Shown: positions 3,111 through 16,000 of the stretch, piece by piece
Position numbering within the stretch: the first letter of the stretch is position 1
Layout: every line of letters begins with the position of its first letter
Virus genome (UHGV): UHGV-0362799
Direction: 5' to 3' (one strand)
DNA: 16,858 nt
From: a virus
Translations under genes and position numbers: made by a program
The notes under the pieces: model-generated
What the model was told of the DNA's origin: nothing
Databases searched by the model: none
The model's input: only the letters and a program-made list of their open reading frames with translations

Positions 3111-3605
3111 ATGAGCATGATTGCAAAACCCGGTATCACTGCCGCGACGGAGGATGTCGCGGACACGGACGACGGTGATGCACGCATCACCACGGACGAC
3201 TTCTGGCCGGAGACAGAACTGCGCGCGCTGCGCCTTGCCGTGCGCCTGCCCGGTCGCACCACCACGTCGCGTCTGATGCACGCGGCAACCGAAGCCGTGG
3301 CACACGTCACCGGTGAGCTGCGCAACTGGCAGACGCAGCAGATGAATGACGGATACCGCACGCTGGCGGACGTTCCGGCCTCCCGCGTGAACGGCGAAAG
3401 CGTCAACGTGCACCGCTTCCGCCTTGCGGTGTATGCCGCCACCCGCGCCCTGATACTGGAGCGCGTGCGCGATGTGGACACCACCGAACAGGGCGACCGG
3501 AAAGCGGACGCACTGGAAGCCCAGACCGGCGACCTCTGGCGCGACGTGCGCTGGGCCATTGCCGATATTCAGGGTGCACCGCGCATCTTTGCGGGGCTGT
3601 GCTGA
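3111..3605 (+). CDS. L: Head completion/stabilization protein (gpL family)
   Basis: 164-aa ORF, RBS ACGGAGG upstream; conserved position M-L-X; size matches P2 gpL (about 169 aa). Confidence 0.85.
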   Translation: MSMIAKPGITAATEDVADTDDGDARITTDDFWPETELRALRLAVRLPGRTTTSRLMHAATEAVAHVTGELRNWQTQQMNDGYRTLADVPASRVNGESVNVHRFRLAVYAATRALILERVRDVDTTEQGDRKADALEAQTGDLWRDVRWAIADIQGAPRIFAGLC

Positions 3606-3805
3606 TGAAGGTGAAGGCATTACAGGGCGACACCGTTGACCTGCTGTGCTTCCGGCACTACGGCACAACGCAGGGCGTGACCGAAAAGGTGCTGGCCGCC
3701 AATCCGGGGCTGTGCGGACAGATTTTTCTGGAGGCCGGACAGGAAGTGGAATTACCGGAGCAGGAAGAGAAAAAAACACGGGAGACGGTGCAGTTATGGG
3801 ATTAG
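3605..3805 (+). CDS. X: Tail protein X (small LysM-like protein)
   Basis: ATG at 3605 overlaps the L stop (TGATG); 66-aa product MKVKALQGDTVDLLCFRHYG... matches the gpX pattern (about 67 aa). The ORF track starts at an upstream GTG (3599). Confidence 0.75.
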   Translation: MKVKALQGDTVDLLCFRHYGTTQGVTEKVLAANPGLCGQIFLEAGQEVELPEQEEKKTRETVQLWD

Positions 3806-5638: not shown

Positions 5639-6257
5639 ACCGGATGCGGTTTTTCGCGACATTCTGGACGGGCTTTCCGCCGCCGGACGGGCGCGCACGG
5701 CGCGGGCTGTCGGGCAGGCGCTGCGTCAGAGCCAGCAGGCACGTATCCGCGCACAGAAGAACGCAGACGGCTCGCCGTATCCGGCACGAAAACGGCAGGT
5801 GATGCACACCCGCCGTGAAGTGAAGTTTGTGTGGAACGGCGAGGTCCGCACGCTGCGCCAGTGGGGACACAAGCGTTACCGGAGAGGCCGCGCCATCATC
5901 GGGCGCGACCCTGACCGTGGCGGCGCGCTGAGGACGTTTTACCGTGATGATATTGAGCGATACATCGCTGTATCGTCCATGTCTGCCCGTCAGACCAGCA
6001 AAAAAAGCACGCCGATGTTCGCGCGTCTTCGCACATACCGCTGGTTAAAAATGCGCTCAGATGCGGAAGGCGCTGTTGTGGGCTTCGATGGCCTGGCGGC
6101 ACGGATTGCCCGCGTGCATCAGGCAGGGTTACGCGACGAGGTGGCTCCGGGCGTGATGACCACCTACCCGGTGCGTGAACTGCTGGGTATAACCGCAGCC
6201 GACGAACGCCTGGTATATGACACGATTATCCGCTCCCTGAGGAGTGCGGCACGATGA
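5619..6257 (+). CDS. S: Tail completion / virion morphogenesis protein (gpS family)
   Basis: ATG at 5619 with AAGGA RBS 8 nt upstream, overlapping the R 3' end; 212 aa (longer than P2 gpS at about 150 aa); position R-S-V. Confidence 0.7.
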   Translation: MNTTSHEPDAVFRDILDGLSAAGRARTARAVGQALRQSQQARIRAQKNADGSPYPARKRQVMHTRREVKFVWNGEVRTLRQWGHKRYRRGRAIIGRDPDRGGALRTFYRDDIERYIAVSSMSARQTSKKSTPMFARLRTYRWLKMRSDAEGAVVGFDGLAARIARVHQAGLRDEVAPGVMTTYPVRELLGITAADERLVYDTIIRSLRSAAR

Positions 6258-7197: not shown

Positions 7198-8080
7198 CCT
7201 GTCGGAACTGCCGACACCACAGATTATTGAAACGCCGGATTTTGAAGTCATCCTGGCGGAGGTAAAAGAAGACATCATTACGTCATTTCCACAGACACAG
7301 CAGGCTGCCATCCGGTCAGCCATGGCGCTCGAGTCCGAACCGCTCACGGTCATTGCCCAGACTTTTGCGCTGCGTGAGTTGCTGCTTCGCCAGCGAATTA
7401 ATGAAGGGGCAGCGGCCTGTATGCTGAGCCATTCCACGGGTGACGACCTGGATAACCTCGCCGCCAACATGAACACCGCGCGGCTGGTCATCACTCCGGC
7501 CACGGATACCACGGAGGCCGTCATGGAAAGCGACACAGCCCTGCGGCTGCGTGCACAGTCTGCGTTTGATGGCCTCAGCGTGGCCGGCCCCACCGGGGCG
7601 TATGAATATTTTGCCCGCAGTGCCAGCGGTCAGGTGGCGGACGCGCGCGCAACCAGCCCCGCACCGGCGGAAGTCGTGGTGGCGGTGCTGTCCACAGAAG
7701 GCGACGGCACGGCGACCGAAGCACTCCTGACGATGGTCAGAAATGCGCTGAATGCCGAAGACGTTCGCCCGGTCGGTGACCGCCTGACGGTGCAGAGTGC
7801 AGAAATCATCCGGTATCAGATTGATGCCCGGCTTTACTTTTATCCGGGGCCGGAGTCGGAACCCATCCTGAATGCCGCCAGAAACAATCTGGAAACCTGG
7901 CTTGCCGAACAGGGCAAAATCGGTCGCGATGTGGCGCTCTCCGCCATCATGGCCGCGCTGCATGTTCAGGGCGTTCAGCGCGTGGAACTGACCAGCCCCG
8001 CACAGAATATTGTTATCAGTGATGTGCAGTCAGCGTACTGCACATCGTTCACGGTCAGCGCAGGGGGAACCAATGAGTGA
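7184..8080 (+). CDS. J: Baseplate assembly protein (gpJ family)
   Basis: 298-aa ORF, RBS AGGAG; size and position match P2 gpJ (about 302 aa). Confidence 0.9.
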   Translation: MPAVDLSELPTPQIIETPDFEVILAEVKEDIITSFPQTQQAAIRSAMALESEPLTVIAQTFALRELLLRQRINEGAAACMLSHSTGDDLDNLAANMNTARLVITPATDTTEAVMESDTALRLRAQSAFDGLSVAGPTGAYEYFARSASGQVADARATSPAPAEVVVAVLSTEGDGTATEALLTMVRNALNAEDVRPVGDRLTVQSAEIIRYQIDARLYFYPGPESEPILNAARNNLETWLAEQGKIGRDVALSAIMAALHVQGVQRVELTSPAQNIVISDVQSAYCTSFTVSAGGTNE

Positions 8081-8612
8081 ACCGTCACTGCTCCCCCCTT
8101 CAGCCAGCGATTTCATGCGCTGCGTGGAGCGGGGGGCTACCCGGTTGTCAGCACTACCTGTCAGCCTTAATCAGCTCTGGGATCCTGACACCTGCCCGGT
8201 GGCCCTGCTGCCTTATCTGGCGTGGGCGCTGTCCGTGGACAGGTGGGATCGTGACTGGACGGAAGAAACAAAGCGCCAGGTGATCCGTGATGCCTGGGCT
8301 ATCCACCGCCATAAGGGAACCATCAGCGCCATCAGGCGTGTGGTTGAACCCTTTGGCTATGTCATTAACGTGACGGAATGGTGGGAAACCGGCGATCCGC
8401 GAGGGACTTTCCGGCTGGACATCGGTGTACTGGATACCGGTATCTCCGCTGCGACCTATACCGAGCTGGAGCGCCTCATCGATGATGCCCGCCCGGTGAG
8501 TCGCCATCTTACCGGATTAAATATTGTGCAGGACATTTACGGGGATGTGTACGTCGGCGGGGCTGTATTTTGCGGCGACACTATTGAGGTTTATCCGGGA
8601 GAGGTTGTCTGA
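8073..8612 (+). CDS. I: Baseplate/tail protein I (gpI family)
   Basis: Internal ATG at 8073 (MSEPSLLPP...) overlapping the J 3' end by 8 nt; about 179 aa, matching gpI size and position. Confidence 0.85.
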   Translation: MSEPSLLPPSASDFMRCVERGATRLSALPVSLNQLWDPDTCPVALLPYLAWALSVDRWDRDWTEETKRQVIRDAWAIHRHKGTISAIRRVVEPFGYVINVTEWWETGDPRGTFRLDIGVLDTGISAATYTELERLIDDARPVSRHLTGLNIVQDIYGDVYVGGAVFCGDTIEVYPGEVV

Positions 8613-8614
8613 AT

Positions 8615-11461
8615 ATGAAATATGGTGCCATTATCACAGCGGCTGGCGCTGCCAGGCTGGCTGCGGCCACAACAGCAACAGGCCAGAAGCTGAACATCAC
8701 TCACATGGCCGTGGGAGATGGTAATGGAAATCTCCCGGAACCATCGGCCTCACAGGCCGCCCTGATCAATGAAGTCTGGCGCGGGACGCTGAATAAAATT
8801 ACACAGAACAGCAAAGCGCCAAATCAGGTGATTGCGGAACTGGTTATTCCTCCGGAAGTTGGCGGCTTCTGGATGCGGGAGCTGGGGTTGTATGACGACA
8901 GCGGAACCCTGATTGCCGTCGCCAATATGGCAGAAAGCTACAAGCCGTTACTCGCCGAAGGTTCGGGGCGCTCAATGGTCTGCCGCATGTTCATCATCAT
9001 CAGCGATATGAACGCGGTGAATCTGTCAGTGGACAGCAGCGTCATTGCCGCAACACAGGAATATGTTAACGAAGCCATCTCCGGCCTGCACCGCGCCATC
9101 ATTGATGATGTGGTTCTTCAGCATAAAGTTGTCCACGATATTGACTACGCCGGTATTTTTGACGGCGCGGATAAGATGAGTCAGGGGTTCTGTATCTGTG
9201 ATACGCCGCAGGGAACCAGAATGTTTCTGCATCAGCCTGTATCGGGTGGCGTAAGGATTGTTGAAACGACATTTAACCCTGACGGAGAAAACGAAAACCC
9301 GACGGTCATTTCGTTTTCTCCCGTTTTCGCTGATATTGGTCACCAGAGTATCGGGGCTGTATGTGAAGACGGTCGCGTGATGCTGTATACCCCGACCGCT
9401 GACGGCAAGGGTGTGAATATCATCAACTGGAATGGGGCTGACACCAGTCTGACAGATGTCACCCGTACGGAGATTTTCACCTCTGACTTTTTTACCGGGG
9501 ATGAAATTATAACGGTGGCATTGTCGGCAGACGGAAGCCTGTTGATTGTTCAGTCAAGTAATGAAGCCGTCCATCTTCATTACAACAGGGATGACCGCCG
9601 CACAGTTTATGTTTTCGATCGCGCTTCTCTGACGTTTAAACACCGGATTTATCTGTCCACCCAGTCAATGGTGTCGCAGGCATTTCAGGGGATGGCCAGC
9701 GATGGTCATTATCTGTTTGCTTATTACGGTTATACAGGCGTATTTCTGACTCACCGCATTGTTGTATATAACCTGTCAACGGGCGAAGTTGTCAGACAGT
9801 TCAATGTGGATGGCGTTCGTGCCAGGTATGGCCGCCAGAAAATGCTGGGGAATGCAGAGCTGGGGTATCCCGTTTTGCAGGAAGCCGAAGGGCTGGCTCT
9901 CCATAACGGAAAACTGTATCTGCTCGATATGGATTTCTGGTGTCAGACAGCCGATGTGGTTTCTTTTGAGGGGGCATACTTTGCAGCACGTGCAACAAAT
10001 TTTTCTGGCCGTTCCCCGGTGAATCCATCTTACTGGACGCCTACAGCATATGGAACGGCGGCTGCAACGAAATATGATGCCACGAAGTCTTATACGTGTG
10101 GCGTGGCGACAAAACGCAGCAAAGCTGTGGTTTCCGTGGAGGCTTACGACGGCACAGGCTATCTGGTGGACTCCGGCGTGGCGTTTCCTGACAGCCATGC
10201 CAGCCTTTTTCTGAGTCCCAATGCTGTAAATATTGCCCTGTCACCCAATGAAGACTTCCAGGTGGCAGCCTATGAGCAGAATCTGCGCTCGCATCGCCCG
10301 TTATTTGAGGTCAGAAAGGAGGCTCCGGATACAGACACTTCTGCTGCTGTTTTTCGTTTGTTCGGGGATGCGTTCCGAACCGGAGAATACACAGGCCGCT
10401 ACGTTCAGTGGAAACACCGACTGAACGCCGTGCACGATTGTCTGGAAATACGCGCTGACGTGGATTTGTTGAGCGGTGGCGGGATTAACCTTTACTCAAT
10501 GAACGATACTCAGTCGGCGGGACGCACAAGGCTTTATTGCACCGATGGCAGTGAAACCTGGTCTGTATTATTGAGTCCGGTCTCGCCGTCATTTCATCCC
10601 GACCAGGACAAGGCAATGAATCTGGGGTCATCGCCAAATCGCTGGAATGTGGCATACCTGCAGGGCGTGAATATTAAATCGGATGACGAAACCCAGAAGC
10701 GCATGACCATCAGCACCACGCTGAAGGCGGGAGCTTTCCAGGTATCAACAGTCGGGAATCTGGGTATTTATGACGATTCTGCTGACGCTTATGTAATTGC
10801 AGCCCGTAGTGACGGCACTGCATTCATGCAGATGGATACAGATATTAACGGTGCATTCCGGCCATCGGTTAACAATACCAGCGACCTGGGTGCGCCCAAC
10901 AAAGCGTTCCGGAGCGTGTATCTCTGCAACTCGCCGACCGTTGTGTCGGATGCGACGTTAAAGGATACACCGCGCGATGCGACGGCAGCCGAAAACGCGG
11001 CATTTGCAGAAATAGCACGGCTTCCGGGCGTGTGGCGCTGGTTACAGAGAATTGAGGAGGAGGGCGAGGACGCGCGTCTGCACGCCGGGCCGACAGTCCA
11101 GGCCGCGATAGCCGTGATGGAGAAACACGGTCTGGACTGGCGGAAATACAGCGCATTTTGTCTGGATTCGTGGGAAGCGGAGGAGGCACAGTACGAAGAT
11201 ATACCGGAAGAGTATGAAGATATTCCGGTTCAGCCAGCGATTTATTCGGATGAAGGGGAGCTGTTGAGCGGGACAACCCGTGTGCTTACCCGACAGGCGG
11301 AAAGGGTTCTTGTTCGCCCTGCAACCGAAGCAGGAAGCCGTTATCGCTTCCGGAAAGAGGAGCTTCTCTGGTGGTGTCTGCGTGCTGTTGTCAGCCAGGT
11401 GGATGCGCTGACAGAGAGTATCAGCGCACTTACCCGCCGTGTTGATTTACTGGAGGAATAA
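8615..11461 (+). CDS. H: Tail fiber protein (gpH family N-terminus; divergent central region; C-terminal intramolecular-chaperone-like domain)
   Basis: 948 aa. N-terminal about 160 aa carries the conserved gpH block ...MAVGDG...ELVIPPEVGGFWMRELGLYDDSGTLIAVANMAESYKP. The rest diverges from P2 H. The C-terminal about 170 aa begins SDATLKD and ends in a predicted helix, resembling peptidase S74-type self-cleaving chaperone domains. Confidence 0.9.
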   Translation: MKYGAIITAAGAARLAAATTATGQKLNITHMAVGDGNGNLPEPSASQAALINEVWRGTLNKITQNSKAPNQVIAELVIPPEVGGFWMRELGLYDDSGTLIAVANMAESYKPLLAEGSGRSMVCRMFIIISDMNAVNLSVDSSVIAATQEYVNEAISGLHRAIIDDVVLQHKVVHDIDYAGIFDGADKMSQGFCICDTPQGTRMFLHQPVSGGVRIVETTFNPDGENENPTVISFSPVFADIGHQSIGAVCEDGRVMLYTPTADGKGVNIINWNGADTSLTDVTRTEIFTSDFFTGDEIITVALSADGSLLIVQSSNEAVHLHYNRDDRRTVYVFDRASLTFKHRIYLSTQSMVSQAFQGMASDGHYLFAYYGYTGVFLTHRIVVYNLSTGEVVRQFNVDGVRARYGRQKMLGNAELGYPVLQEAEGLALHNGKLYLLDMDFWCQTADVVSFEGAYFAARATNFSGRSPVNPSYWTPTAYGTAAATKYDATKSYTCGVATKRSKAVVSVEAYDGTGYLVDSGVAFPDSHASLFLSPNAVNIALSPNEDFQVAAYEQNLRSHRPLFEVRKEAPDTDTSAAVFRLFGDAFRTGEYTGRYVQWKHRLNAVHDCLEIRADVDLLSGGGINLYSMNDTQSAGRTRLYCTDGSETWSVLLSPVSPSFHPDQDKAMNLGSSPNRWNVAYLQGVNIKSDDETQKRMTISTTLKAGAFQVSTVGNLGIYDDSADAYVIAARSDGTAFMQMDTDINGAFRPSVNNTSDLGAPNKAFRSVYLCNSPTVVSDATLKDTPRDATAAENAAFAEIARLPGVWRWLQRIEEEGEDARLHAGPTVQAAIAVMEKHGLDWRKYSAFCLDSWEAEEAQYEDIPEEYEDIPVQPAIYSDEGELLSGTTRVLTRQAERVLVRPATEAGSRYRFRKEELLWWCLRAVVSQVDALTESISALTRRVDLLEE

Positions 11462-11463
11462 TT

Positions 11464-11748
11464 ATGGACTTAACACCGGTGTTCCATGCACTTTGTGCGG
11501 TGGCCGCTCAGTTTCTGGTTGGTCTTTTTACCGGAAACTGGGCTTACGGAGCGATAGCCGGTTGTACGTTCTTCATTGCGCGTGAACACACCCAGGCAGA
11601 ATATCGCTGGATTGAAATGTTCGGGCATGGCAGGCGTATGAATATGCCGTGGTGGGGCGGTTTTGACCCACGAGCGTGGGATATGGCAAGTCTGATGGAT
11701 TTTGCAGTGCCGGTGGTGGCATGTCTGCTGGTCTGGCTGGTCGTATGA
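11464..11748 (+). CDS. Small hypothetical membrane protein, translationally coupled to the tail fiber gene
   Basis: ATG 3 nt after the H stop with excellent RBS GGAGGA 6 nt upstream; 94 aa with two hydrophobic segments (residues about 6-39 and 77-94) flanking a Trp/Arg-rich loop; followed directly by a terminator. No family recognised. Confidence 0.6.
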   Translation: MDLTPVFHALCAVAAQFLVGLFTGNWAYGAIAGCTFFIAREHTQAEYRWIEMFGHGRRMNMPWWGGFDPRAWDMASLMDFAVPVVACLLVWLVV

Positions 11749-11760
11749 CGTAGCAGGAAA

Positions 11761-11785
11761 CAGGGGGATTTGCCCCTGTTTTTTT
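11761..11785 (+). terminator. Rho-independent terminator ending the fiber operon
   Basis: CAGGGG-GATTTG-CCCCTG hairpin followed by TTTTTTT, 13 nt after the stop of the 94-aa gene. Confidence 0.7.
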
Positions 11786-11786
11786 G

Positions 11787-11930
11787 TTCAGAATGCAGCC
11801 TTCACCATTCGTCTCTAATCGTATTCAGTAATTCGCCCGCAGAAACAAACTAAAATTCATCCCCCGCATCACGCCACTGAAAGCAGACGGTAAACTCCAG
11901 ATTTTCAAACCAGCGTCAGAAGTATTTAAA
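11787..11930 (-). pseudogene. Degenerate remnant of a gpU 3' end (frameshifted fragment)
   Basis: About 70-80% nucleotide identity by eye to 12569-12705, the 3' end of the intact U gene. Reverse translation gives ...SAGELLNTIRD then a 1-nt deletion relative to U (...SAGELLNALKDKMPVAAF*). No start codon and no upstream part of the gene. Confidence 0.55.
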
Positions 11931-12151
11931 TGGCACCAGATGTAATATGCAGGCGATTAATATGGTGTGCTTAAAGATCATAAAAGCGGGCAACATTAAA
12001 ACTCCGGGCTGTGTAAATTACCGCCACTCATAATCAGAGATGAAAACAGAATTAAACTGGCGGAGTGGATTGTATACATAAAATAAGTTCAGTTGTTGAC
12101 TTTCACTTCCGTGAATTGATGAAGGTTATTACAATACATCGGTATGATCTC

Positions 12152-12176
12152 TCCTCCTTAAAAGGGAGGACTTTTT
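12152..12176 (+). terminator. Candidate intrinsic terminator
   Basis: TCCTCCT-TAAAA-GGGAGGA hairpin followed by CTTTTT. Confidence 0.45.
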
Positions 12177-12193
12177 AGAACGCAGAAATTATT

Positions 12194-12256
12194 TATAATC
12201 CCGTAGTGTTCTATACATGCAAACATTCTTTTTCCGCCCCGTGCGGGCTTTTTTTT
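12194..12256 (+). ncRNA. Candidate small transcription unit S1 (-10 TATAATCCC to short GC hairpin plus T8)
   Basis: TATAAT at 12194-12199 with AT-rich upstream region; GC stem 12236-12248 followed by T8 (12249-12256); predicted transcript about 50 nt; no convincing ORF or RBS. Confidence 0.25.
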
Positions 12257-12324
12257 GCCGCAAAGATACAGTAACAAACAAAATTGTAATCATGGCAATC
12301 AAAACACGAGAAACATTTTCAGCA

Positions 12325-12353
12325 ATTGCAATAACAAATTAAAATATTGCAAT
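12325..12353. promoter_or_regulatory. Two perfect ATTGCAAT palindromes spaced 21 bp centre to centre (operator-like); a third, imperfect, ATTGTAAT lies at 12283-12290
   Basis: ATTGCAAT at 12325-12332 and 12346-12353; the second overlaps the -35 of the S2 promoter; ATTGTAAT is centred 42 bp upstream of the first. Confidence 0.35.
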
Positions 12354-12376
12354 TGACAATCCCCGCTTAATATAAT
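12347..12376 (+). promoter_or_regulatory. Candidate sigma70 promoter (TTGCAA-N18-TATAAT)
   Basis: TTGCAA 12347-12352 and TATAAT 12371-12376; an alternative -35 TTGACA at 12353-12358 gives only a 12-bp spacer. Confidence 0.4.
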
Positions 12377-12382
12377 CCCTTC

Positions 12383-12444
12383 CGGAACATAGAACATTAA
12401 ATCTTCACACAATGCATGTTGCCCTCTTTATGAGGGCTTTTTTT
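12383..12444 (+). ncRNA. Candidate small RNA S2 (promoter to terminator, about 60 nt)
   Basis: Predicted start about 7 nt after the -10; ends at the GCCCTC-TTTAT-GAGGGC plus T7 terminator (12421-12444); only a 30-aa ORF without RBS runs through the terminator. Confidence 0.3.
12421..12444 (+). terminator. Rho-independent terminator
   Basis: GCCCTC / GAGGGC stem with 5-nt loop followed by TTTTTTT. Confidence 0.65.
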
Positions 12445-12537
12445 ATTTCCAGAATATCACCATTGCCATCATCGGGCGATTTATATATAGTCAGAATGTA
12501 TTGACAACATTTTGCTTCTTTTCCATGAAGGCCATAA

Positions 12538-12567
12538 GGGAGTGCTTTTTACACTCCCTCTTTTTTT
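12538..12567 (+). terminator. Rho-independent terminator (+ strand) abutting the U stop codon
   Basis: GGGAGTG-CTTTTTA-CACTCCC followed by TCTTTTTTT. In the - orientation the hairpin is followed only by UUAU, so it acts mainly on + strand transcription heading into U antisense. Confidence 0.65.
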
Positions 12568-12569
12568 AT

Positions 12570-13028
12570 TCAGAATGCAGCCACAGGCATTTTGTCTTTA
12601 AGCGCGTTCAGCAGTTCGCCCGCAGAAGCAGACTGAAACCGCTCTCTCATATCCTCATCACACCGCTGAAAGCTGATGGAAAACTCAATCTTTTTTGCCT
12701 TTCCGTAACGATCCAGCTCGGAGCGGGTGGTCTGTAATCCTGTAATCACGTACATTCCGTAAATCTGCCCCGTGCCATCAATCAGCGGCCAGGGACATCC
12801 GGTGTAGGCCTGGGTGTTCAGCAGTGTCAGTGACACCTCACCACCGGTAATTTCCGGGTACAACAGACCGGACAGCGTGATCTGATCGTCACCTGCGCCA
12901 ATATACTGCCAGGCCGCAGAGCGGTTAATGCGCTCATTTTTCACATGTCGCCATGTTTTGCTCTGCTGGATCTGCTGATGCGGAAGCGTTTTCAGCTCAA
13001 ACACAAACATGCCAAAAATCATCATCAT
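12570..13028 (-). CDS. U: Tail protein U (gpU family)
   Basis: 152 aa, starts MMMIFGMFVFELKTLPHQQIQQSKTWRHV...LSGLLYPEITGG, recalled as the gpU family signature; RBS AGGAGA upstream; directly downstream of the tape measure gene. Confidence 0.85.
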   Translation of the reverse strand: MMMIFGMFVFELKTLPHQQIQQSKTWRHVKNERINRSAAWQYIGAGDDQITLSGLLYPEITGGEVSLTLLNTQAYTGCPWPLIDGTGQIYGMYVITGLQTTRSELDRYGKAKKIEFSISFQRCDEDMRERFQSASAGELLNALKDKMPVAAF

Positions 13029-13041
13029 AATTGCGTCTCCT

Positions 13042-16000
13042 TTAGTCCCTGTCGCGGAAGCTGTTCATGCCTGTACGCGCCTGTCTGCGCATCTCTTCGC
13101 GGACGGCCTCACCAACCAGTTTTGCCAGTTCGCGCGGATTCTGTGTGTTGACGTTGTGCAGATGTACATGTATCTCACCGGAAAACGCAGCCGCCTGCGG
13201 CTGTGGCGCAGCTTCCCTTCTGGCCGCATCCGGTCGCAACGGGGGCCGGATAGCCTCCGCGACGGGAGCGGAAGCCATTACCGCCCCCGTCATACCTTCA
13301 GCCACGTTACGCGGCTGCGGCAGTGCGGAGACCTGGCGGGCCACGTTCACAACGGGAGCGGGGGCACTCACCGCAGGGGTGGGCAGTACACCTGTCAGTC
13401 TCTGCCAGAGCATTGTCAGTGCATCCGTCAGCCCTACGCCCGCCGATACCGCCTGCACCGTCCGGACAACCTGCGGTGCTTTCCACTCGCCGTGAATGAT
13501 TTCGGATCCGGGCAGATTTTTGAAAACAATATCGCCGGGACCGACGCGCCTGCGTGTTTCCTCAAGAAGCCCGCCGGTGTTGCTGGCGGTTTTCTGTATC
13601 CCCTGCCGGAACCATGCCTCATCCAGCGGGGATTTGCTGCCGGGTTTGCCGACCGGATTGTCCGCCGTTCCCCTCACCTCTCCGGGAACAGCAGGGGCAG
13701 GTACTGCGGGTTTATTGTCACCGTTGTTTTCCGCTGCATCTGATGACCACGACCATGGTTTCTGCACCATTTTTTTCTGTGCAGGATCCCACTCCCACGC
13801 AACCGGCGCTTTTTGTGTGGCCTGTTTTGCGGCGCTCTCCTGGAGTTTTTGCGTCTCCTTCTGTGCCTCTTTGATGCCGTCCGGGATGACACCCAGCCAC
13901 TTCAGCACGGTACCGAGGCCATCAAGGAGCAGCGTCAGCGGCCCCAGCACAATGTTCTGAATGACCCACCCCAGCGTTTTCCCGAACGACTCCCCTGCAC
14001 TGGTGCATTTGTCGAGCGTCTCTTTTGAGGCGTTCGCAGGTTCAAGCAGGCGGGTGAACCACTCCCACACGGCTTTGATGCCGTCGCCAATCAGCCCGAA
14101 CACCGGAGCCAGCGATGCAAAGGCTTGCCGCAGCGGTTGCAGCGCCTCCCACACTCCGGCAAAAAAGCCGGAAAAAAACGCGCTGATCTGATCCCAGTAT
14201 TTCCACACCAGAACCGCGCCGCCCACCAGGGCGGCAACAATCAGCCCGACCGGACTGAACAGCGCCCCCAGTGCGCCCCCCAGTACCGACACCGCCCCCG
14301 TGACCAGCCCCCACAGCGCAGGCAGCCCCGTCAGGCGCAGTGCCATCGCAGACACAAGCCGGACAGCACCACCAATGCCACCGCCCCCCGTCAGCAGCCC
14401 CAGTCCCAGTTGCAGTTTTGCCAGTGGCCCCGCAATCAGCCCGAGCGTCAGTGACAGCGCACCGAACGTGGAAGACAGCGCCAGAACACTACCGCCGGTC
14501 AGCACCAGCCCCCTGACCAGCGCCTGGTGCTCTCCGACCCATTCGCGCATCCGGGTCATCCACGCGCTCACCGTCTGAACCAGCCCGCGCAAATCCTCCG
14601 TCACTGTACCGAAGATGTCCGTGCGTAGCCCTGAGAACGCACCACTCAGCGCCTGAACATCGCCGGAAAGATTACCGCGCAGTGTCTGCCCCATGCGGTC
14701 TGCCACGCCGCTGACATCACCCAGGTTGTCACGGACATCAGCCAGCGCCCTCAGGAACTGCGGGATCTGGTCAACGGAAAGGTCTTCAACGGGTGTGCCG
14801 AACAGCGCAATGGCCGTGTTCGCCCGCTCTGCCGGGTCACGGATGGCCAGCAGTGCACGGGCGGTCACCTGCATCGCCTGACGAGCAGTGCTGCCTCCCT
14901 GTGCAATGGCAGCAGACACCCGCTCAGCATTCAGGCCGAGAGTCTCATACGCTGAGACACTGGATTTCGACATATCCGAACCCCGGATGCTGAACTCCTT
15001 CACGGCATCGCCGGTTTTGTCCAGCGCAAACTTGCCCTGCTTTGCCATCTCAACCAGCAGACTCATTGTCTCGCTGCCGGTGAAGCCCATGTTGCGGAAG
15101 TGGGTGGAATACTCGTGCAGAATTTCCGGCAGTTCATCGCGCATTTCAGCGGACATACGCTGCATCCCTGCCGTCATCAGGTTAGTAGCCTCGTCACTGC
15201 TGGCAGCCAGCCCGTTCTTCATCATGATGGCAGCGGCCTGAATGCTCTGCGGCACATCAACACCAAAGACGGTCCGCATATCCAGCGCACGACGGCTGAT
15301 GCGCTCCAGTTCCCGGTCGCCGGTGTCGCCCAGTGCGCCGAGCGTACTGCGTACCGCACTCACAGCCTCCGCAGCACCGGCAAAATCAGCGAGACCGTCA
15401 GCCTGTATGTTACGAATAATGTGGGTGTAACGTGCGCCATCCTGTGCGCCTTCCCCCGAACCGGCTGCGATGACCGCACCGTGCTGTTCGGACTCCATCG
15501 CCGGAGCCATCATACGCTGCGCCGCATACAGGCCGCCTGTACCCGCCGCCATCGCCACAGCCCCTGTGTTGCGCAGTTTTTCCGCCTGTGCCTTCGCGGC
15601 CTCATAGCGGCTCTGTGCCTGCGTCACGCGAGCCAGTGCCTGCCGTTCGCGCTCGAGCTGCTCGTTGTACTGCTGTGTACGGCGAACGGCACTTTCAATG
15701 GTGCGGCTGCTGCCGGAAAGCAGAATGCCGTGTTTGCGCATTTCCCCTGCCGCCGCCTGAAGTTTTTCGCGCTCACGCGTGCGCAGCTCGTTCAGGCGCT
15801 CAAGCCGTGCAGACAGCGCCGTCATCATCTCCCGCTGCTTTTCAGAGAGGGTGTTGCCGTTCTGCTCTGCCTTTCGCAGTCCGGCGAGCCTCTGCTCCGC
15901 GCGGGCAATCTGTTCGCGGTATTTACTGAGATTTCCGGCGGCACGTTCGAACACCTTCGACTGCCTGTCGAGCGTCTGTATGTTGTCCTGCGTCTTCTGA

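Follow-up and report, generated by a model that had tools for sequence, protein, structure and literature searches.

Remnants of an exchanged fibre module and an AT-rich insert with three candidate small-RNA units at the fibre/gpU junction of a P2-family prophage

The sequence UHGV-0362799 (16,858 nt; called the window below, meaning the whole stretch that was analysed) is the late region of a P2-family (Peduoviridae) prophage of Escherichia coli. Between its fibre operon and gpU, a tail gene that converges on this operon, lies an AT-rich island (positions 11749 to 12569) in which two halves can be told apart. A recombination scar makes up the left half (11749-12185), and an AT-rich insert lies in the right half (12186-12569). 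We lean, if only slightly, towards reading the island as this scar plus an insert that acts as a non-coding moron with three small-RNA units, designated U1 to U3. The insert plausibly resembles three tiny promoter-to-terminator RNA genes, and would not then be a new kind of system.

The guanine-plus-cytosine (GC) content of the island is 38.4%, compared with 57.6% for the window and 53-60% for the flanks, and that of the right half is 35.2%. An earlier note on this DNA had proposed such a drop; it is real, but the 25-35% estimated there is too low, single 60-nt lines of the island ranging from 28% to 53%. No open reading frame (ORF) of at least 60 aa lies wholly within the island on either strand, as that note had also said, and the sole ORF touching it is a TTG-started frame of 78 aa (12501-12737) that runs antisense into gpU. 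Scans of the island found no tRNA, tmRNA or tandem repeats, and no Ogr-type late-promoter box (TGT-N12-ACA). The view that the island is more than simple spacer stands. The proposal of an acquired cassette of RNA genes or morons fits the right half, with its foreign composition and units resembling small RNAs (sRNAs), but not the left 437 bp, which are decayed structural genes. In public annotation the gap is left blank, and the feature tables show nothing there.

Terminators and gene remnants in the left half

Five distinct hairpin/T-tract stems were found in the island, all on the + strand and each followed by a T-run (11763-77, 12152-70, 12233-47, 12421-37 and 12537-59; T1 to T5, Table 1). 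The terminator scan of the island returned seven hits (five distinct, one overlapping and one weak), compared with 0.5 ± 0.8 in dinucleotide shuffles of the island's own AT-rich sequence. No terminator-like site was found on the - strand in the scan of the island or of 11000-13300, and the reverse side of T5 has only UUAUGG after its stem. The tail operon may accordingly be read through the insert, antisense to U1-U3, or it may rely on Rho.

These scans confirmed the five terminators that the earlier note had placed here, but the idea that they form one tandem set did not hold. T1 and T5 are, as their shared sequence indicates, two copies of the ordinary terminator of the fibre-operon/gpU junction; T2 is a hairpin of the tfa pseudogene; and T3 and T4 are the only ones that lie entirely within the insert. 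A 27-nt repeat, CCCT(G/C)TTTTTTT(G/A)TTCAGAATGCAGCC, is common to T1 and T5/gpU and spans the T-run and the gpU stop. The T1 hairpin has a predicted energy of -17.4 kcal/mol (z = -4.6), and the stop codon of a dead gpU copy follows directly after it. Relatives in other species have one hairpin, at exactly the T1/T5 junction position. From this single hairpin and the T1/T5 repeat, T1 is identified as the junction terminator of a donor, imported with a new fibre block. The T2 hairpin is present only in the window-type lineage and in the lineage typical of sequence type 131 (ST131), and is absent where the stretch is closer to coding sequence.

The left 437 bp can be read directly in the sequence as a scar, with remnants of three structural genes (gpU', fibre H' and tfa'), and is ordinary mosaic debris. 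A duplicated gene end, which had already been noticed, accounts for its first part: 11774-11905 repeats 12556-12694, that is, the terminator T-run and the gpU 3' end, with 79-93% identity in three ungapped blocks and about 73% over 139 nt by gapped blastn. The dead gpU stub is about 118 nt long; it matches gpU residues 124-158 by tblastn, and its translation is broken. The next part, 11916-12002, shares 80.7% identity with the P2 H/G junction (78% with SfMu) and has the orientation of the genes; it runs from the final codons of a fibre gene to codon 23 of a tfa gene. Finally, 12033-12185 is 87% identical (blastn, locus copy 3469-3621) to the intact 187-aa tfa of E. coli strain 135, which encodes a PF02413 (Caudo_TAP) protein, and it matches tfa residues 167-193 by tblastn. 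Because this segment aligns to the final 153 nt of the intact gene, about 325 nt must be missing from the interior of the tfa pseudogene.

These remnants show how the scar arose. An older fibre-tfa module was displaced by the present fibre, which carries its own C-terminal chaperone domain, followed by orf94. The junction terminator T1 and a stub of the donor gpU came in with the new block; the final codons of the old fibre gene stayed at the site, as did the tfa gene. With an intramolecular Peptidase_S74 chaperone domain in the new fibre, tfa would probably have become dispensable, and would then have decayed by an internal deletion and an early stop. The present fibre combines this C-terminal domain with an N-terminal tail-collar domain (PF12571).

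As in the fibre-module exchange known from P2, Mu, P1 and lambdoid phages, a conserved fibre-end/tfa-start stretch persists as a scar beside the replaced module, and nothing in this half is unusual in comparison. It is a clear case in which a separate assembly gene can become dispensable once the fibre has a chaperone of its own. It also illustrates how module swaps can leave duplicated junction terminators, which may help to interpret 'terminator clusters' in other phages.

The AT-rich insert and its candidate RNA units

The insert was found in 72 of 5426 complete E. coli genomes, with 82-100% identity and always beside gpU, and in the same gpU context in six viral and five metagenome contigs. 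Its size is about 330 bp (the conserved stretch measures 330-380 bp). The same junction was compared in relatives, as the earlier note had proposed: no homologue of the insert was found in 43 loci of other species, an nhmmer search for the units included, and the named relatives also lack it at this junction. Where these other-species loci have the convergent layout, the junction measures 7-358 bp, mostly about 50-150 bp, and contains no island DNA; in E. coli no107 the gap is 83 bp and also lacks the insert. In those E. coli prophages in which the insert occurs, it is conserved and not itself variable.

Strain 135 carries the insert behind an intact fibre-tfa pair; the insert is therefore older than the exchange of the fibre and goes together with gpU. 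About 330 bp of AT-rich DNA would thus have entered between the tfa stop and T5 before the exchange described above. An imperfect second copy of the last tfa codons and stop (17-19 nt) just before T5 suggests an insertion spanning 12186-12516, with T5 as the ancestral terminator; this repeat is weak and was equalled by 15-27 of 2000 shuffles.

Three candidate units can be drawn in the right half, each a putative sigma-70 promoter followed by a terminator on the + strand. The three promoters would fire from the prophage and give short RNAs of about 51, 61 and 70 nt; U1 and U2 would use their own terminators, and U3 would read into the pre-existing T5. In each predicted RNA, an unstructured 5' stretch is joined to a GC hairpin with 7-8 U as its tail. 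This is the build of the trans-acting, Hfq-type sRNAs of enterobacteria. By length and ending, U1-U3 match the in silico description of an sRNA unit (about 50-250 nt, ending in a hairpin and a U-tail of at least 6-7). The folds of U2 (z = -2.1) and U3 (-16.2 kcal/mol, z = -2.9) are more stable than those of shuffles. For the insert as a whole, we infer a moron function.

The earlier note had pointed to -10/-35-like elements. Only two sites in the 16.8-kb window match the promoter consensus in 10 of 12 positions, those of U2 and U3; both are on the + strand and end 45-46 nt before the stems of T4 and T5. The number of promoter-like sites in the island, on the other hand, is not above that in shuffles (3 compared with 2.8). 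Palindromic repeats had also been reported and do exist: a perfect 11-nt inverted repeat (CAATTGCAATA at 12323-33 and TATTGCAATTG at 12345-55), which overlaps the U2 -35 element and is restricted to the window-type lineage, and the palindrome TTCCGGAA at 12380-87, likewise not conserved in relatives.

Conservation was assessed in 13 distinct variant sequences that represent only about 4-5 independent lineages. T3, T4 and T5 are retained in all 13, as are the -10 hexamers and the TTG of the -35 elements; the U2 spacer varies. In Fisher comparisons with gpU third positions (31% variable columns), neither the inter-unit spacer (33%, p = 0.78) nor the tfa pseudogene (40%, p = 0.12) differed. U1 was less variable (14%, p = 0.011), as was, much more markedly, the segment 12396-12515, which comprises the U2 3' part, T4 and the U3 promoter and 5' part (8%, p = 4e-6). 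The U2 promoter and 5' part were more variable than the reference (55%, p = 0.0035). The U3 promoter is nearly invariant (3 of 46 columns variable). So is the U2 3' part (12396-12444), while the U2 5' part (12377-95) occurs as two very different alleles. Invariant stretches that might be unpaired seed regions are 12396-12420 in U2, ACATGC.AACATTCTTT in U1 and the U3 5' part, but the heterogeneous variability of the background weakens this reading. In the named hairpins, 98.4% of cells are paired. Compensatory pairs were seen only in U3, where there are two; T5 has only one, a G:C to C:G change in two variant sequences.

The two alleles of the U2 spacer and 5' end (12347-12395) begin CCCTTCCGGAACATAGAAC... 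and CCCCCTGCAA(C/G)CAGAAAA.... In the window the left flank is of the ST131 type, and the U2 allele is that of the TUM9803 and strain 135 types. The distribution of the U2 alleles departs from that of the rest of the insert, which points to recombination within it.

Two further ideas about this region were rejected. A remnant of the gpU 5' start at 12445-12480 gave nothing significant in self-comparison, and a three-way alignment of U1, U2 and U3 was unconvincing as evidence of paralogy. An exact 14-nt direct repeat, GCCATCATCGGGCG, lies in the U3 promoter region (12465-78) and, 6.5 kb away, in a + strand late gene (5892-5905); with a blastn-short E value of 0.02 it may be due to chance.

Table 1. 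Coordinates of the island features and of the neighbouring genes in the window
Feature	Position	Strand	Basis or remarks
948-aa fibre	8615-11461	+	Baseplate genes also on + strand
orf94, 94 aa	11464-11748	+	Last gene of present fibre operon
T1, terminator of present fibre operon	11755-11785	+	A-tract, GC hairpin, T7 run; bidirectional design
Second gpU copy, 3' end, pseudogene	11788-11905	-	Stops and frameshifts; arrived with incoming fibre module
P2-H-type tail-fibre gene, last codons, pseudogene	11916-11960	+	Similarity to P2 H/G junction
P2-G-type tfa, 5' start, pseudogene	11962-12033	+	MVCLKIIKAGNIKT... compared with MMHLKNIKAGNAKT... in P2; stop at 12031-33
tfa 3' end, pseudogene	12033-12185	+	Last 153 nt of intact tfa of strain 135
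T2, hairpin/T-tract within tfa pseudogene	12150-12177	+	Terminator scans, alignments of relatives
U1, candidate unit	12173-12256	+	Weak -35 TTTAGA (TTTACA in relatives); invariant -10 TATAAT 12194-99; terminator T3
AT-rich (35% GC) non-coding insertion, suggested extent	12186-12516		Between tfa stop and ancestral junction terminator
U1 predicted RNA	12206-12256	+	About 51 nt, U8 tail
T3, terminator of U1	12231/33-12247 and T8	+	Terminator scans
U2, candidate unit	12347-12444	+	-35 TTGCAA 12347-52; 18-nt spacer; -10 TATAAT 12371-76; terminator T4
U2 predicted RNA	12384-12444	+	About 61 nt, U7 tail (U6 in relatives)
T4, terminator of U2	12421-37 and T7	+	Terminator scans
U3, candidate unit	12463-12567	+	-35 TTGCCA 12463-68; 17-nt spacer; -10 TATAGT 12486-91; ends at T5
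U3 predicted RNA	12498-12567	+	About 70 nt, U7 tail
Imperfect second copy of tfa last codons and stop, tentative	12517-12535	+	TTTTCCATGAAGGCCATAA compared with TTTTACAGAAGGCATAA
T5, ancestral junction terminator	12537-12567	+	8-bp stem, T7 run; abuts gpU stop (12570-72)
gpU, tail protein	12570-13028	-	PF06995 E = 7e-40, phrog_76; convergent neighbour anchoring the insert

Competing explanations of the insert

Several results weigh against functional RNA units. Rfam 15 was searched with three alleles at gathering and permissive thresholds: there were no hits at the gathering thresholds, and the best score below them was 22.8 bits (threshold 50), to a Streptococcus sRNA and driven by the terminator. 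Complementarity of the units to the late genes of the window, or to early-region sequence from a degraded relative of the prophage (NZ_CP013031), was not above that of shuffles, the longest complementary stretches to phage genes being 8-9 nt, as in shuffles; the targets of U1-U3 would have to lie outside the late genes of the window. U2 was considered as a sponge of GcvB on account of a CACACAA motif, and this was rejected, its duplex energy being no better than that of shuffles (fraction 0.11-0.29). The -35 element of U1 is poor, and its terminator stem is weakened by two substitutions in the window copy. Covariation is thin, most pairs never varying among the few lineages, and the stretch between U2 and U3, outside the predicted RNAs, is as conserved as the RNAs themselves. 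The gpU third-position variability is patchy (10% to 45% per 60 bp), so a mosaic ancestry could mimic constraint. AT-rich DNA of this kind is, moreover, often silenced.

In a rival reading the insert is passive AT-rich filler or an insulator, foreign DNA with chance promoter hexamers and no functional RNA. Its one selected role, if it had any, would be to stack + strand terminators and so prevent late transcripts of the fibre operon from entering the tail operon in antisense. We consider this somewhat unlikely. It agrees with a promoter count no higher than in shuffles, with the failure of the Rfam and target searches and with the heterogeneous gpU synonymous variability, under which block-wise ancestry can yield conserved patches; all terminators, too, face the fibre operon and none the opposite way. 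Yet one hairpin suffices in the related junctions examined, so that three extra terminators would be unneeded, and filler does not explain why the two best promoter matches of the window each stand at nearly the same distance ahead of a same-strand terminator. Nor would it be expected to keep the hexamers while the spacer diverged, or to have in 12396-12515 a variability below that of the spacer, the synonymous sites and the pseudogene next to it. Should the units be silent, the island would be ordinary mosaic debris and AT-rich filler. Under the reading with three RNA units, too, the stack of + strand terminators would keep transcription of the fibre operon and of the units from running antisense into the convergent tail operon.

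A more ambitious form of the small-RNA reading is doubtful in our judgement. It takes the insert as a functional three-gene sRNA cassette fixed in one P88-related lineage that includes many ST131 isolates, with a modular U2 in which a constant 3' scaffold would be joined to a rapidly exchanged 5' targeting end, represented by the two alleles. Such a cassette would act like the anti-sRNAs of enterohaemorrhagic E. coli (EHEC), or would exclude competing phages by means of its RNAs. If true, it would be the first of its kind at the fibre/tail junction of a P2-family phage; searches of the literature by sequence and by topic found no description of this fibre/gpU-junction locus.

It is improbable that the insert derives from one or more decayed protein-coding morons, each built of promoter, small gene and terminator, that have lost their reading frames. 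The composition and the promoter/terminator framing do fit the moron pattern, the site holds protein-coding cargo in relatives (the DNA invertase of P88-type phages), and the left half of the island demonstrates that decay products can persist at this junction. Against this, a tblastn search with 1053 neighbouring ORFs of relatives and the P88 invertase matched only the gpU' and tfa' remnants, the sole hits within 12186-12569 coming from spurious frames of the same insert in E. coli relatives. Seven small frames had no PHROGs hit, and megablast and blastn searches of phage and plasmid DNA collections gave no match to the insert, only P2/SfMu H/G-junction hits in the scar. The distance from -10 element to terminator is only 50-70 nt, too short for a gene, and parts of the units are more conserved than the genuine pseudogene adjoining them.

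Least likely of all is a type I toxin-antitoxin or small-protein locus with U1, U2 or U3 as antisense antitoxin: the - strand opposite U1 and U3 does have Shine-Dalgarno-like purine runs followed by ATG, short promoter/terminator RNAs recall Sib-, Sok- or Rdl-type antitoxins, and a Hok/Gef gene occurs elsewhere in the ST131-type prophage, but no conserved small toxin ORF was found under an antisense RNA, the - strand frames having 22 aa here and 5 aa in TUM9803-/strain 135-type copies, or only 9 aa, the + strand frames being shifted by T-run indels, and no candidate frame being hydrophobic like known toxins or having a PHROGs hit.

Relation to known systems and neighbouring features

The phage moron concept is reportedly that of Juhala et al. 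2000. The insert agrees with it in two respects: it separates genes that are direct neighbours in relatives, and its composition is unlike that of its flanks. It departs from it in that no conserved ORF, and hence no protein-coding gene, was found: every small ORF of the insert is broken in relatives by T-run indels or stops. P2-like phages have a variable locus downstream of their fibre genes, the Z/fun site, to which the position of the insert corresponds. The insert is like morons and like this site in its deviant composition, its putative promoters and terminators of its own and its position directly after a tfa gene. It differs from the P2 site in containing no protein gene, in showing no similarity to P2 cargo and in having gpU instead of FI as its neighbour. 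For P2-like phages, two variable loci have been noted (PMC9122126).

Relatives of the prophage bear out the earlier statement that this junction carries variable cargo: many other-species loci have a single terminator there, and P88-type phages an invertible fibre segment and an invertase. In P88, 500465-2 and 503458 (Xuanwuvirus/Gemsvirus), the position between fibre operon and convergent gpU is occupied by an invertible fibre-end/tfa segment of Mu-Gin-like kind, together with a gene for a DNA invertase that abuts gpU with a gap of about 30-35 bp. An invertible fibre switch was rejected for the window island, in which no invertase remnant, no hix/gix-type site (three mismatches allowed) and no inverted fibre copy were found; that the remnants of both fibre and tfa are + strand sequence also counts against a switch.

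The closest functional analogues are sRNAs of EHEC prophages, by likeness of build and setting only. These sRNAs of 51-60 nt are encoded at moron sites and vary at the 5' end, the 3' end being conserved (PMC4104026); they comprise the AsxR/AgvB 'anti-sRNAs' and EcOnc01-03 (Tree et al. 2014, PMC4104026). The predicted units share with them the short terminator-ended form (about 51-70 nt here), the horizontally acquired AT-rich DNA and the cargo site of a temperate phage, and U2 also has a variable 5' end and a conserved 3' part. The EHEC sRNAs differ in belonging to lambdoid prophages, in lying downstream of PR' in convergent pairs and in their demonstrated expression and Hfq binding, whereas the present units are predicted ones, three in tandem on the same strand at a tfa-gpU site of a P2-family prophage. 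No sequence relationship between the two was detected in the Rfam searches, and there was no GcvB-sponge signal. If U1-U3 are expressed, P2-family prophages would join the lambdoid ones as carriers of non-coding morons, and a widespread ST131 prophage would add three unannotated regulators.

The - strand tail operon of the window includes gpU, the tape-measure gene and gpE. With P2 as reference, the FI-U tail block is inverted in the window prophage. The same layout occurs in P88 and its relatives (Xuanwuvirus/Gemsvirus), with a gpU that shares about 77% identity with that of the window, and in about 30 prophage loci of other Enterobacterales. The product of orf94 has the look of a small membrane protein, and its only match is phrog_1443, the function of which is not known. 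In related prophages, two small ORFs of the orf94 type (92 and 97 aa) stand behind a different fibre.

The closest match among complete genomes is strain 2-1 (NZ_CP097198, 99.6%). There an IS3-family element lies inside the fibre gene (locus copy 10622-11834); the window has this gene intact. About nine E. coli genomes (H1827/12, EC0026B derivatives, AST19, AST205 and E100341) have a deletion that removes everything from the terminase gene through the end of orf94. The endpoint of this deletion is the exact start of the island (window 11746-11749; NZ_CP013031 locus copy 7501-8004): a terminase pseudogene, called 'oxidoreductase' in some records, abuts T1, and the island and the tail operon are retained. 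The ST131-type prophage copy (NZ_OX637961, locus copy 7418-10197) sits between flk and pdxB and has a Hok/Gef-family gene beside ogr; its gpD (VgrG/Pvc8-like) gene is truncated and adjoins an inserted hypothetical gene of 340 aa.

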